This document shows, piece by piece, positions 1 through 24,017 of a stretch of 24,654 nucleotides of DNA (the stretch's first letter is position 1; each line of letters begins with the position of its first letter). Source of the DNA: a virus; the UHGV virus genome UHGV-1451352; one strand, 5' to 3'. A program made the translations under genes and the position numbers. The notes below the pieces were generated by a model, which ran no database searches, was not told the DNA's origin, and saw only the letters and a list, made by a program, of their open reading frames with translations.

Positions 1-55
1 TAACGAGCCCCTCCTAAGGGCTAATTGCAGGTTCGATTCCTGCAGGGGACACCAT
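1..55 (+). tRNA. argW: 3' 55 nt of a tRNA-Arg(CCU) gene, truncated by the window start; likely prophage attachment site
   Basis: Read directly: anticodon stem-loop AGCCC-CTCCTAA-GGGCT (anticodon CCT), variable TAATT, T-arm GCAGG-TTCGATT-CCTGC, acceptor 3' strand AGGGGAC, discriminator A, CCA ending at 55. Matches my recollection of E. coli argW. The 5' half lies outside the window. Confidence 0.85.
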
Positions 56-4679: not shown

Positions 4680-4747
4680 GTCAATATTTCCTAATCCGAT
4701 TTGTTGATACCGAAGCCCTGACTGTTCCCGCAGTTGGGGCTTCAACT
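4679..4747 (+). ncRNA. Candidate sar-like antisense RNA covering the ant ribosome-binding site
   Basis: From established P22 biology: a ~68-nt antisense RNA starts at the ant start region and ends near the arc 3' end. Here a TATACT -10-like hexamer sits at 4668-4673 and a GAAGCCC...GGGGCTTC hairpin at ~4711-4742. Endpoints are not verified. Confidence 0.3.
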
Positions 4748-20693: not shown

Positions 20694-21182
20694 TTATTTC
20701 CCTTCTGCTTGCTTCCCAGTGGTGAACGAATCAACGCTGCCGCCGGAATAGCAGTCAAGATCAATTGCGACTTGTACCGCTTCTCTCGCATTTTTGCCAC
20801 AGTGCATGGCAGTGCGAGCAATCAGCCCACCACTACCAATGGCGTATGGTTCAACCTGTGGCGAAATACTCGCCCGCGTTTCGCCTTTCTCTTTTGAGAT
20901 GATGTAAGCACGACCAGCACCGATGATAGCAAGCGCTGTGAAAGAGAATGTCGGGAGAAATTCTGATGCATACGTCAGGTTGTTCTTAAGCAGTTCCTGC
21001 AATTCCATCTCCGCGCCGCAATCACCAGAACAACCTAATGCAACCACTTTACTGCCGCAAACCTCCCACCCAGATTCTGGCGGTGTGTAAATCTTTTGTT
21101 CTGTATACGAACACACAACATCACCAGATGTTGCCTGGGTGTCAGATGCCAGGGTCTTTCCATCCCATGCAATAGTGGTCAT
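20694..21182 (-). CDS. HslV-like N-terminal-nucleophile threonine peptidase (proteasome beta-type fold), 162 aa
   Basis: Begins Met-Thr-Thr-Ile (Thr1 after Met removal). Aligns by eye with E. coli HslV through D.QAT.G, KV.A.G..G.....L.EL and the AIGSGG motif. No HslU-like ATPase gene is adjacent. Confidence 0.65.
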
Positions 21183-21183
21183 A

Positions 21184-21426
21184 TCATGCTCCGGTGGTGA
21201 ACAGGTCTAACGCTTCCTTCGATTTACGCACCGCTTCGATAGTGCGGGTCGTGATATCTGAATTAGCGCCGCCTGACTGGAAGTGAATTTTAAATAGCTC
21301 AAGCTTCAGCTCGTCAGTGCCAATGAATTGAAATGCTTCCTCTGCGGCTGCGTTCTGGTTCATGACCAGTTTGTAAATCTCTAACTGGAATTTCTGTTCT
21401 TCAGTCATGGGAATAATCTCTGCCAT
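21184..21426 (-). CDS. Small hypothetical protein (80 aa) translationally coupled to the HslV-like gene
   Basis: GGAG ribosome-binding site 8 nt before the ATG; its stop is 1 nt before the HslV-like start. Predicted helical, acidic. Confidence 0.55.
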   Translation of the reverse strand: MAEIIPMTEEQKFQLEIYKLVMNQNAAAEEAFQFIGTDELKLELFKIHFQSGGANSDITTRTIEAVRKSKEALDLFTTGA

Positions 21427-21529
21427 TGTTGGCTCCGTTTATCCGTTAAAAGGGATATCAGTTAATTTATCCCGTGTAGGGTATAAGCCATTATCAAAGC
21501 CACTCTGTAGGGAATGGCTTTTGTAATAA

Positions 21530-21891
21530 CTACTGTTCGCTTAGCTTCTGCTTCAGCAAGTAACCTTCCAGCATCCAGATTTTATTCACCGCATTTTCGC
21601 GGGCGATCTTACGCCCGATCTCCTGGTCAAAGTTCTCCGGGCTGGCGCACGCAGACTCGCCGGTTACGGTAAAGCCGTTCTCCAGCACAAGAACGCAGAA
21701 GGTCAGCAGTTCGAGTGATTGCGGGCCGGTTCAGGCTCTTCCTGCTTCAGCCACAACGGTGAGCTGCGATATCCGTCCGCGCCGGTAAAGTAAAACTCGC
21801 CTGAGATAACAGCTTCAATGCGTTCCGGGGTAACACGCGCGGCCGTTTTGCCTTTCTCAACGATTTCTTTTTCGATTTGCTGTTCGTTCAT
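21530..21891 (-). pseudogene. Frame-disrupted conserved phage gene (about 116 codons if restored)
   Basis: Listed ORF 21703..21891 (MNEQQIEKEIVEKGKTAARVTPERIEAVISGEFYFTGADG...) stops at 21700. A second frame stays open to a TAG at 21530-21532 and reads ...LTFCVLVLENGFTVTGESACASPENFDQEIGRKIARENAVNKIWMLEGYLLKQKLSEQ. This is consistent with a single indel near 21715-21740, or a sequencing error. Confidence 0.45.
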
Positions 21892-22173
21892 AATTATGAC
21901 CCTGTGGAGTGGTTGCTTGATTAGGATGTCTTTCCATCAGTCCGCCACCACAAAGAATCTTTTTTGCCATAAGGCAGGAGGTTCATCTTTCAGTGGCTGC
22001 CAGTGTTATTTCCCCACTTACTGGCTTGGGTTGCTTCGTGGCACTGCCGTAACTGGTGGTGCACAGATTTAGTTAAATCTGTTCTCGCCTGAACTATCTT
22101 TTACATACCCGGATTGTGGGGTGTAAATCACGGTTTCATTATCAAGCCCACCCGTAGATGTGCTTTGGAATGG

Positions 22174-22374
22174 CTACTGGCGGTCATTATGCTCGTAACG
22201 AGATACCGTCTTCCCGTTCTGGTTCATCACGTAGGCGACCTCGCCAGGTTTCAGGAATACATTTTTGTCCATTCCCGATACCGCGATGCTCTGCTGCCCC
22301 GGATTGAACCCTACACTCAACCCGCAATGAATCTCTTCACCGCCACCTGGCGACATTACTTTTACTGTTAACAT
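22174..22374 (-). CDS. Small hypothetical protein (66 aa) downstream of Rz
   Basis: AGGAGAA ribosome-binding site 7 nt upstream of the ATG. Gly-rich, beta-like composition. Followed by ~280 nt without a credible ORF. Confidence 0.5.
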   Translation of the reverse strand: MLTVKVMSPGGGEEIHCGLSVGFNPGQQSIAVSGMDKNVFLKPGEVAYVMNQNGKTVSRYEHNDRQ

Positions 22375-22401: not shown

Positions 22402-22426
22402 AAAAAAGCCCGACAGAAGTCAGGCT
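22402..22426 (-). terminator. Intrinsic terminator after the spanin genes
   Basis: On the - strand RNA: GCCUGAC-UUCU-GUCGGGC hairpin (one G-U pair) followed by UUUUUUAUU. Confidence 0.55.
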
Positions 22427-22445
22427 CTGTTATTTGGGTGACGAA

Positions 22446-22919
22446 TCACTTAAGACACTGCTCTTTGATGTAGTCCTGCATGCCGCGAATCATTTTGTCA
22501 GCGGTTGCGATTCCGTCCCGGTGATCGAAATAATTCCGTCGAGCGTCTGGAGTAAGTTCGGGGGCTCCTGCATCATCCACGCCGGTGGAGGAGGTGGCTT
22601 TTGGCACTCCAGGGCAGGTTGCGGCGATGCGCAGCCGTTTAGCGCCAGAATCGACATCACGACGCAAATCGTTAATGGTCTTTTTCGCATCGGACAATTC
22701 CTTCGTGTATTTGGCATCCAGTGCAGCGACATCACGCTGGCGGGTCTGCATGTCTTTAATGGTGGCGGTCGCCAGGAGGAGTTTCTCAGTGGCCTTATCG
22801 CGCTGGTCTCTGTAAGTGATGGCGTTGTCGCGGTAGTGGTTCACGAAGAAAGCCAGTGCGCCGATTAACGCCAGCACCAGCAACTGCAGCCAGTAACGCT
22901 TAACCAGTGCGCTAATCAT
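22446..22919 (-). CDS. rz: i-spanin Rz (P22 gp15-like), 157 aa
   Basis: N-terminal transmembrane segment then a charged coiled-coil periplasmic domain. Follows lysozyme with a 4-nt overlap. Carries an embedded Rz1 frame. Confidence 0.85.
22490..22690 (-). CDS. rz1: o-spanin Rz1 embedded in the +1 frame of Rz (66 aa lipoprotein)
   Basis: ORF 22490..22735. From the internal ATG: [20 protein letters not shown]... with a lipobox Cys and the PPPPPAW proline run, as in lambda Rz1. Confidence 0.75.
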
Positions 22920-23861: not shown

Positions 23862-23937
23862 TGGTGCCGGTTAACGGATTTGAACCGCTACCTATTCACT
23901 TACAAGGCGACCGCTCTACCATTGGAGCTAAACCAGC
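23862..23937 (-). tRNA. Predicted tRNA-Thr (anticodon TGT), 76 nt
   Basis: Cloverleaf folded by hand: acceptor GCTGGTT/AACCGGC (one G-U), D-arm GCTC-CAATGGTA-GAGC, anticodon arm GTCGC-CTTGTAA-GTGAA (4 of 5 pairs), variable TAGGT, T-arm AGCGG-TTCAAAT-CCGTT, discriminator A, encoded CCA. Confidence 0.65.
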
Positions 23938-23942
23938 ATGTT

Positions 23943-24017
23943 TGGCGGGACAGCGTGGACTCGAACCACGATAAGAAGGTTAACAGCCTTCCGTAATGAC
24001 CTTTATACGACTGACCC
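23943..24017 (-). tRNA. Predicted tRNA-Asn (anticodon GTT), 75 nt
   Basis: Cloverleaf folded by hand: acceptor GGGTCAG/CTGTCCC (one T-T mismatch), 3-bp D-stem, anticodon arm GAAGG-CTGTTAA-CCTTC (perfect), T-arm CGTGG-TTCGAGT-CCACG, discriminator G, encoded CCA. Five nt from the tRNA-Thr. Confidence 0.6.

Follow-up and report, generated by a model that had tools for sequence, protein, structure and literature searches.

A probable accessory-gene junction in the late operon of a P22-like prophage: a freshly broken Gp49-family gene beside a conserved non-coding module

Introduction

What fills the gap between the lysis genes and the packaging genes of a P22-like prophage, where no continuous gene can be read? 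The question is raised by positions 21,427 to 22,374 of the UHGV virus genome UHGV-1451352, a human gut metagenome contig. The whole stretch of 24,654 nucleotides (nt) is called the window here, and all positions refer to it. The window is a P22-like (Lederbergvirus, Sf6/HK620-type) prophage with its late operon on the minus strand, and the studied region is the joint between the lysis cassette and the packaging genes. A sequence-only reading had described this joint as a decayed stretch with a frame-disrupted gene, about 280 nt lacking any open reading frame (ORF), and a palindrome ahead of an HslV-like gene. On balance, and with much room for doubt, we favour the view that the region is an accessory-gene junction of a lambdoid late operon, in which a Gp49-family gene, broken only recently, stands next to a non-coding RNA module that is conserved. 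The descriptive part of this view, that is what the individual pieces are, is highly probable. The region contains no new kind of system: its parts are a disrupted member of the PF13876 family, a homologue of the P22 small-RNA candidate P22G, and stem-loops that resemble the mRNA-stabilising type. What the present analysis adds is the extent of the conservation, the proof that the conserved block is non-coding, a measurement of its constraint, and a covarying family of hairpins that brackets it.

Conservation of the non-coding stretch

The absence of ORFs from 21892-22173, with stop codons in all three minus-strand frames, was correctly noted in the sequence-only reading. Its interpretation as decay does not hold, since the stretch is conserved in phages, is less diverse than the adjoining coding sequence and has its core in a P22 small-RNA candidate. 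When the 282 nt were used as a query against a phage collection, 165 records matched, all at 80% identity or more, and these include P22, L, ST64T, HK620, Sf6, the siphovirus HK022 and mEp phages, as well as ES18-like phages in part. In the alignments with Sf6, E. coli Z142-1 and E. coli OZ040950, homology sets in precisely where the variable upstream gene has its stop codon and runs at near identity through the ORF-free stretch, and the Gp49 coding sequence beyond it is far more diverged. The stretch is unannotated in these three records. From these comparisons, the ORF-free stretch is best regarded as a conserved non-coding module and not as decay.

Seven phages and about 120 IMG/VR contigs were compared to delimit the parts of the module, which follow each other in the order stem-loop A, variable spacer, 126-nt core, inserted Gp49 cassette, stem-loop B and conserved DUF2560 leader with the palindrome:

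22137-22171, minus strand: stem-loop A, first copy of the junction hairpin (outer stem ATTNC/GAYAAT; covariance model R1, 53.2 bits, E=4e-11)
22063-22082, minus strand: hairpin of 8 base pairs (bp), ACAGATTT-AACT-AAATCTGT, within the variable spacer of about 55 nt
21925-22050, minus strand: ultraconserved non-coding core of 126 nt, recognised by conservation, sharp borders and P22G homology
21892-21924, minus strand: 33-nt leader of the Gp49-family cassette (CTAATCAAGCAACCACTCCACAGGGTCATAATT), one of at least five alternative right flanks of the core
21530-21891, minus strand: gene of the Gp49 / Sf6 gene 66 family (PF13876, phrog_322) with a 1-nt deletion, identified by alignment and profile matches
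21489-21527, minus strand: stem-loop B, second copy of the junction hairpin (R1, 47.8 bits, E=9e-10; inverted repeat I2, direct repeat D2)
21452-21473, minus strand: palindrome GGGATA-N10-TATCCC, then TTTTAA

Sf6 and OZ040950 have the spacer of about 55 nt; Z142-1, L, P22 and HK022 lack it. Two arrangements occur behind the core: stem-loop B and the DUF2560 leader come directly after it in HK022, HK620 and roughly half the contigs, and the window, Sf6 and others carry the Gp49 gene as an insert between core and stem-loop B.

The core and its apparent constraint

The core reads ACGGCAG...GGAAAGACATC and has sharp borders at both ends, with at least five unrelated alternative flanks on each side (upstream of ACGGCAG and downstream of GACATC). 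It is found on about 120 IMG/VR contigs and, at an identity of about 93-99%, in the 165 phage records and in 1120 of 5426 complete E. coli genomes, in the latter nearly always at full length; among the matches listed from complete E. coli genomes (10 rows) it is without any annotation. In species-representative genomes the exact pattern gave few matches: they fell in E. coli, in Shimwellia and in some metagenome bins whose assignment is unlikely.

Several kinds of natural variation bear on the coding potential of the core. Homopolymer runs vary in length (G4/G5, A3/A4 and A5/A6/A7), the core of P22, a phage sequenced independently several times, has a +2 indel, and in 7 of 105 distinct core sequences TTAT is replaced by TTAA, which interrupts one sense mini-ORF with a stop and deprives the other of its ATG. 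These indels and the stop-creating variant, together with the stops in all sense frames, show that the core does not code.

Nucleotide diversity was compared in 46 distinct loci in which core, leader and DUF2560 gene are contiguous. The search pattern had fixed 20 of the 126 core positions, and these are excluded from the values:

Core, 3' 87 nt: 0.013
Leader, 102 nt: 0.017
DUF2560 gene, codon positions 1 and 2: 0.033
Core, first 18 nt: 0.096
DUF2560 gene, codon position 3: 0.117

The 87 nt of the core are about 9 times less diverse than the third codon positions of the neighbouring DUF2560 gene, in a comparison between segments that differ in their mosaic histories, and the difference has the same direction in a wider set of 74 loci. 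Judged by these values, the core appears to be under constraint.

Some side observations concern the integrity of the core and its other strand. In IMG/VR contig 2667527666_000002 (locus L017) the core is broken about 80 nt in, after GGCAAAAA, by sequence that opens with TGAACCGCCCCGGGAATCCTGGAGAC and presumably represents the inverted-repeat end of an IS3-family insertion sequence, which it resembles. Locus L074 and the ES18-like phages have stem-loop A and only the first ~47 nt of the core (to GGGGAAATAAC), after which they diverge, so that the core may consist of two separable sub-blocks. On the opposite (plus) strand, a hairpin of nine pairs, four of them G-U, can form at 21960-21981 in the central part of the core; it has a U-rich tail, and the terminator scan calls it terminator-like. 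In the phage L record the corresponding place is annotated as a leftward terminator, and half of the natural variants (a T/A polymorphism) weaken the plus-strand hairpin.

Homology to the small-RNA candidate P22G

Small-RNA sequencing of P22-infected Salmonella has led to the report of P22G, a 204-nt candidate on the late (plus) strand of P22, downstream of ORF201 (rha) and with no known function (Naaz et al. 2026, Noncoding RNA 12:21, PMC13397905, Table 2). The printed P22G sequence contains the core, and the core of the window is 93.0% identical to P22 over query positions 124-249. It also shares strand and late-operon place with P22G, as it lies on the minus strand like the Q-like, holin, lysozyme, Rz and terminase genes. 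The window therefore carries a homologue of the reported, uncharacterised candidate. In a full-text literature search with the core sequence only the P22G paper (PMC13397905) matched, and the element is not described in the phage L genome paper, the pid-locus paper or the BTP1 transcriptome paper.

Between 21350 and 22450 no Rfam family reached its gathering threshold, the best sub-threshold matches of core, hairpins and leader having E=2.4 or worse. A minus-strand promoter scan in and near the module gave no sigma-70-like site, and no Chi site and no LexA, IHF, CRP or sigma-54 motif was seen in the core on inspection by eye. With regard to folding, all frequent polymorphisms of the core fall on predicted unpaired positions, which is compatible, if weakly, with a predicted long hairpin. 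One predicted internal loop exposes ACCUCCU, by inspection the anti-Shine-Dalgarno tail of 16S rRNA, and this loop offers a lead as a candidate seed for pairing with ribosome-binding sites.

Hairpins on either side of the core

Covariance model R1 detects exactly two hairpin copies in the 24.6-kb window, stem-loops A and B, both on the minus strand and both in the studied region. In 100 related loci it finds 164 copies, and among the 90 loci with enough flank a copy lies upstream of the core in 63 and downstream in 69. The hairpins of this type have an outer stem ATTRC/GRYAAT, two bulged A, a variable 7-bp inner stem and a loop of 8-12 nt, and they begin two bases past the TAG stop codon (AGTAG-NN-ATT) of three unrelated genes. 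Stem-loop B is located directly 3' of the Gp49 stop codon and has one copy of the motif CCCTACA in its loop, and stem-loop A of the window has two mismatched pairs.

Covariation was tested on 36 distinct hairpin copies. Standard pairs make up 97.5% of the cells, 4 of the 12 pairs are changed on both sides (42 cells), and the covariation score was reached by none of 500 shuffles; controls slid along the sequence pair at 27-48%. All 12 one-sided changes give G-U or U-G pairs on the late-sense strand and A-C mismatches on the other. Since the one-sided changes can wobble-pair only on the late-sense strand, the hairpins are taken to be RNA of the late transcript. By this comparative evidence stem-loops A and B are real structures in which compensatory changes keep the pairs. 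Stem-loop A is followed by GAAACC and stem-loop B by GGCTTA; with no U-run behind them, neither is an intrinsic terminator. In line with this, the terminator scan called only the hairpin after Rz and the one plus-strand site, and not A, B or the palindrome.

Individual copies of the hairpin deserve mention. One IMG/VR contig has a chimeric stem-loop B, whose 5' arm belongs to the AAAGCCA type and whose 3' arm belongs to the TGGTCTC type, so that a crossover within the loop is suggested, and in some contigs junctions fall within the outer 5' arm. The variant at L056:4044-4079 has lost both bulges and forms a perfect 13-bp stem.

A single missing base in the Gp49-family gene

The inserted gene is present as two pieces in different minus-strand frames:

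21703-21891, minus strand: N-terminal piece, start MNEQQIEKEIVEK, which runs for 62 codons and stops
21723-21725, minus strand: frameshift site, CCC in the window and CCCC in the intact allele
21530, minus strand: end of the continuation ...LENGFTVTGESACASPENFDQEIGRKIARENAVNKIWMLEGYLLKQKLSEQ*, which is open in a different frame from the N-terminal piece

Both the 62-codon ORF and its out-of-frame continuation are present where the sequence-only reading had placed them, and its proposal that one frameshift splits one gene is supported by alignment, by the identity of the repaired protein to an intact one, and by matches to PF13876 and phrog_322. The gene region was aligned with Sf6, E. coli Z142-1 and E. 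coli OZ040950. The window has GAACCGG-CCCGCAATCAC and Z142-1 has GAACCGGCCCCGCAATCAC, so that one C is missing from a CCCC run (GGCCCG in the window, GGCCCCG in Z142-1). The indel is thereby placed at 21723-21725, within the interval of 21700-21745 that had been proposed for inspection. When the C is restored, a protein of 120 amino acids (aa) results, with 100% identity over 120 aa to the Z142-1 protein (L002:2731-3090), which is intact and annotated as a Gp49 family protein; an intact gene in a relative, which had been suggested as a check, is thus available.

The C-terminal piece matches PF13876 (Phage_gp49_66; N4 Gp49 / Sf6 gene 66) at E=5e-31 with 107.5 bits against a cut-off of 27, and spans profile positions 22-82 of 82. 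The N-terminal piece by itself gave no match in the profile search. After repair, the whole protein matches phrog_322 (E=8e-59), and the position of the gene is that of Sf6 gene 66. As it stands, the window does not have the intact ORF of about 120 aa expected for PF13876, as the frame is lost after codon 56 of 120, and the 62-aa product from the start codon is without the conserved domain. A single missing base relative to an intact allele implies that the two frames belong to one protein, and that the lesion is a single event, either very recent or an error; from the alignment, the 62-aa and 52-aa ORFs are to be read as the halves of one Gp49-family gene.

We consider it likely that the frameshift is a real mutation. 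There is a smaller but appreciable chance that it is an artefact of sequencing or assembly and that the gene is intact in the real phage, as the difference is one base in a homopolymer and the remainder of the gene equals the intact allele at the protein level. Further weight against a real mutation comes from the carriers of the truncated product. The only one that could be placed is a metagenome contig in ENA (ERR1018197 of PRJEB10878, k127_50865), which is identical to the window across the overlapping 5952 nt, and for the other five contigs with the 62-aa product an origin in different samples is not established. On the other hand, the exact 62-aa product is on record from 5-6 contigs in three sources (JGI/IMG, Logan and ENA). 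The k127 contig name also hints at a short-read de Bruijn assembly, in which indel errors in a 4-base run would be uncommon.

The sequence ahead of the DUF2560 gene

The 102-nt leader between the Gp49-family gene and the DUF2560 gene contains, besides stem-loop B and the palindrome, a second possible pairing close to the gene start:

21440-21457, minus strand: alternative hairpin TATCC-N8-GGATA, which overlaps the palindrome and shares its TATCC arm
21433-21436, minus strand: GGAG ribosome-binding site of the DUF2560 gene, just upstream of the start

The palindrome with its TTTTAA is found exactly as the sequence-only reading described it. The exact pattern had no match in 100 shuffles of the window, but a generic 6-bp inverted repeat is not rare by chance, and the weight of the palindrome comes from its conservation in other phages. 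It is retained exactly or with a single substitution in 43 of the 46 distinct leaders, and it precedes the DUF2560 gene also in HK022 and in Sf6, where gene 68 (HK620 hkbN-like) follows. The presence of the same palindrome in the Sf6 leader, with no HslV-like gene next to it, shows that it is not specific to the HslV-like pair which it had been suggested to control. P22 keeps the arms GGATA, TATCCC and GGGGATA with different spacers.

The alternative hairpin ends 3 nt before the GGAG site, and the minimum free energy fold uses the UAUCC/GGAUA pairing and not GGGAUA/UAUCCC. As the middle arm is shared, palindrome and UAUCC/GGAUA hairpin are alternatives to each other. The whole leader folds at z=-3.92 relative to shuffles, mostly through stem-loop B. 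No compensatory change was found in the arms of the palindrome, in a leader that is likewise conserved throughout. With a loop of 10 nt, three G-C pairs and only UUUU behind it, the palindrome does not have the make-up of an intrinsic terminator. Repeated CCCTACA motifs had also been pointed out; the two minus-strand copies are indeed there (21475-21481 and 21506-21512) and one more is found on the plus strand, but the number is not significant, since 11 of 100 window shuffles reach three copies.

Discussion

For the favoured reading, an accessory-gene junction with a non-coding RNA module, a mechanism can be outlined, to which we give somewhat under an even chance. The module would be transcribed within the late transcript, where reads pile up as P22G on the late-sense strand, as has been shown in P22 only. 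The stem-loops might then serve as processing boundaries or as barriers to 3' exonucleases and so delimit segments of the long late mRNA, and an RNA fragment containing the core would accumulate. The core itself might act by its primary sequence, via base pairing or protein binding. This last step is suggested by the fact that the core is nearly invariant, that its fold is not unusually stable, and that its common polymorphisms lie in predicted loops. It is tempting to go further and see in the core a functional phage non-coding RNA, freed between the two stem-loops and acting in trans through its invariant sequence, for instance the ACCUCCU loop. Host or phage mRNAs or an RNA-binding protein would be the candidate targets, and we regard this extension as possible but doubtful. 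In a bolder variant of it, the hairpins behind accessory genes would direct the exchange of cassettes in lambdoid late operons.

Several observations weigh against an RNA function of the core. Its fold is no better than that of shuffled sequences (z=-0.71), and within 105 distinct sequences, whose variation is too low to exclude a structure, no covariation was detected by RNAalifold, mutual information or stem-by-stem listing; the only linked columns of the alignment are flank haplotypes. Rare variants in the predicted long hairpin (GCCACU/GGUGGC, AAAGA/UCUUU and GCC/GGC) keep and break pairs about equally often. The longest perfect complement to the core in the window is 11 nt, equal to that of shuffled cores. 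P22G itself rests on read pile-ups, the RT-PCR (reverse transcription PCR) of that study having covered P22F and P22H and not P22G (PMC13397905), and the candidate may represent an intermediate in the breakdown of late mRNA. Finally, the low diversity of the core could in part be the result of recent recombinational spread in a highly mosaic gene pool.

An explanation in terms of such exchange, which we judge unlikely, is that the core and hairpins are recombination linkers, or 'boundary sequences', of the lambdoid mosaic, that is crossover DNA without RNA function. It would account well for the sharp borders of the core with its many alternative flanks on both sides, for the position of the hairpin directly behind the stop codons of three unrelated genes, for the contig with chimeric hairpin arms and for those with junctions in the outer 5' arm, and the Sf6 record annotates a 'boundary sequence' elsewhere in the same operon. 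Exchange driven by homology, however, leaves unexplained why compensatory changes should keep the stems, or why diversity should be about 9 times lower than at neighbouring third codon positions over 87 nt. Linker and RNA roles are moreover not exclusive.

A role in cis is less probable still. Here the module would be a leader that sets the translation of, or read-through into, the DUF2560 gene, the HslV-like gene and the small terminase gene, with the palindrome and its overlapping alternative hairpin as an attenuator-like switch or the palindrome as a protein operator, along the lines suggested in the sequence-only reading. The low diversity of the leader fits this idea, as do the two mutually exclusive hairpins with a common UAUCC arm, the downstream one near the GGAG site, the three arms retained in P22 at different spacings, and the UUUUAA behind the palindrome. 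Both hairpins are, however, weak (5-6 bp with at most three G-C pairs), the palindrome is not called by the terminator scan, and its arms show no compensatory changes. The arms in P22 are not followed by the DUF2560 gene, and the core stands upstream of at least five different sequences, so that it is not tied to one gene.

That the entire stretch is decaying DNA, with a dead gene remnant upstream and a pseudogene downstream, was the headline of the sequence-only reading and now seems very improbable. The Gp49-family gene is truly frame-disrupted, and the mismatched pairs in stem-loop A would also fit. The ORF-free stretch, however, is nearly identical in the plaque-forming phages P22, Sf6, HK620, L and HK022 and less diverse than even codon positions 1 and 2 of the neighbouring gene, and the pseudogene is one base away from an intact allele. 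A small protein encoded in the ORF-free stretch, from a sense mini-ORF (MNLLPYGKKDSLWWRTDGKTS or MAKKILCGGGLMERH...) or an antisense ORF (MSFHQSATTKNLFCHKAGGSSFSGCQCYFP...), is hardly credible. In its favour, short ORFs exist on both strands, the conserved block has the antisense ATG at its extreme edge, and orf118 of the phage L record runs into the core. Against it, the TTAA variant disables both sense ORFs, the A-run variants shift the frame, the P22 indel alters the antisense frame after residue 30, and sequence inspection found no usable ribosome-binding site before any of these ORFs.

For annotation, the consequence of the junction reading is that P22-like phages and several lambda-like ones have a gap behind their lysis genes which should be taken for neither junk nor decay. 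A 126-nt non-coding block, more constrained than adjoining coding positions, stands unannotated in a fifth of complete E. coli genomes. If the core is a functional RNA, it would be one carried by about a fifth of these genomes and by many Salmonella and Shigella phages. The module is a defined and cheap experimental target in P22, Sf6 and HK620, and work on it could tell whether regulatory or processing RNAs are built into late operons.

Relation to known elements

The closest known counterpart of the core is P22G. The core is part of the 204-nt sequence at ~93% identity, on the late strand, and between lysis/accessory genes and packaging genes in both cases. In P22, however, the core comes directly after rha with no stem-loop A between them, and stem-loop B, orf25 and the pid moron come immediately behind it, whereas the window has stem-loop A and the spacer before the core and the inserted Gp49-family gene after it. 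This gene resembles PF13876 members by family match and by its Sf6 gene 66 position, and differs from them in the frame that is broken after codon 56 of 120.

Lambdoid boundary or linker sequences, such as the 'bsq' features of Sf6, and morons that bring their own terminators are likewise short conserved joints between exchangeable modules. The elements of the window are much longer, with hairpins of 35-39 nt and a core of 126 nt, and show covariation and strong constraint; elements of this type are not annotated as boundary sequences in the Sf6 or HK620 records.

Stem-loops A and B can also be compared with the intercistronic stem-loops of the repetitive extragenic palindromic (REP) type, which stabilise upstream mRNA segments in polycistronic operons as 3' barriers. 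These too are stable hairpins after a stop codon within a long operon, on the transcribed strand and without a U-tail. There is no sequence relation between REP elements and stem-loops A and B, and the likeness would be one of mechanism only. In form alone, A and B also recall the attC sites of integrons, where the 3' end of an exchangeable gene cassette is closed by an imperfect hairpin whose outer stem is conserved, whose inner stem and loop vary, and in which some bases are bulged. An attC site has RYYYAAC/GTTRRRY boxes, whereas the outer stem of A and B is ATTRC/GRYAAT, so that they do not classify as attC. The wobble pairs of A and B, unlike attC, fit an RNA of the sense strand, and no integron integrase was seen among the called neighbouring genes (lysis, accessory and terminase).

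Genes around the junction

On the minus strand the studied region is preceded by a Q-like antiterminator gene, tRNA-Asn, tRNA-Thr, holin, lysozyme, Rz and a 66-aa ORF, and 3' of it follow the DUF2560 gene, the HslV-family-like gene and the small and large terminase genes. The features next to the module are:

22405-22428, minus strand: GC-rich terminator-like hairpin with T-run (terminator scan: 10 pairs, 5 GC, tail TTTATTCCCA)
22174-22374, minus strand: accessory ORF of 66 aa, phrog_3909 (function unknown), from profile match and gene neighbourhood
21184-21426, minus strand: DUF2560 gene (P22 orf80, HK620 hkbM, Sf6 gene 67; PF10834, E=1e-43)
20694-21182, minus strand: HslV-family-like protein of 162 aa (phrog_1040 'peptidase HslV family', E=4e-38)

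The terminator-like hairpin stands directly after Rz, where it ends the lysis cassette and precedes the 66-aa ORF; the weak sub-threshold Rfam matches at this place are generic terminator ends only. The exact 66-aa protein is recorded on at least 1000 contigs, and near relatives of it are common in Enterobacter and the Klebsiella/Raoultella group. Its slot is variable: Sf6 has gene 65 there, Z142-1 has KilA-N together with a small ORF, and OZ040950 has Rha. The HslV-like gene directly follows the DUF2560 gene and precedes the small terminase gene, in the slot which the small hkbN / gene 68 ORF fills in HK620 and Sf6; the 162-aa protein gave no match in Pfam or NCBIfam.

Between orf25 and orf80 of P22, an unannotated gap of 600 nt (L005 1767-2081, minus strand) holds the pid moron on the opposite strand, as described in PMC3573128 and PMC8835761, which marks the same junction as a hotspot for the insertion of accessory genes.

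Inside Rz, in another frame, an 81-aa ORF (22490-22735, minus strand) with a lipobox-like motif (...LALNGC...) and a proline-rich stretch looks like an Rz1 o-spanin. A full-length sar antisense RNA at 4681-4747 on the plus strand (Rfam RF00262, 71.6 bits) indicates a P22-type immI (ant/arc) region in the prophage. Intact tRNA-Thr(TGT) and tRNA-Asn(GTT) genes lie between the Q-like gene and holin (23862-24017, minus strand), and a 3' partial tRNA at the start of the window (1-51, plus strand) is probably a remnant of the attachment site.

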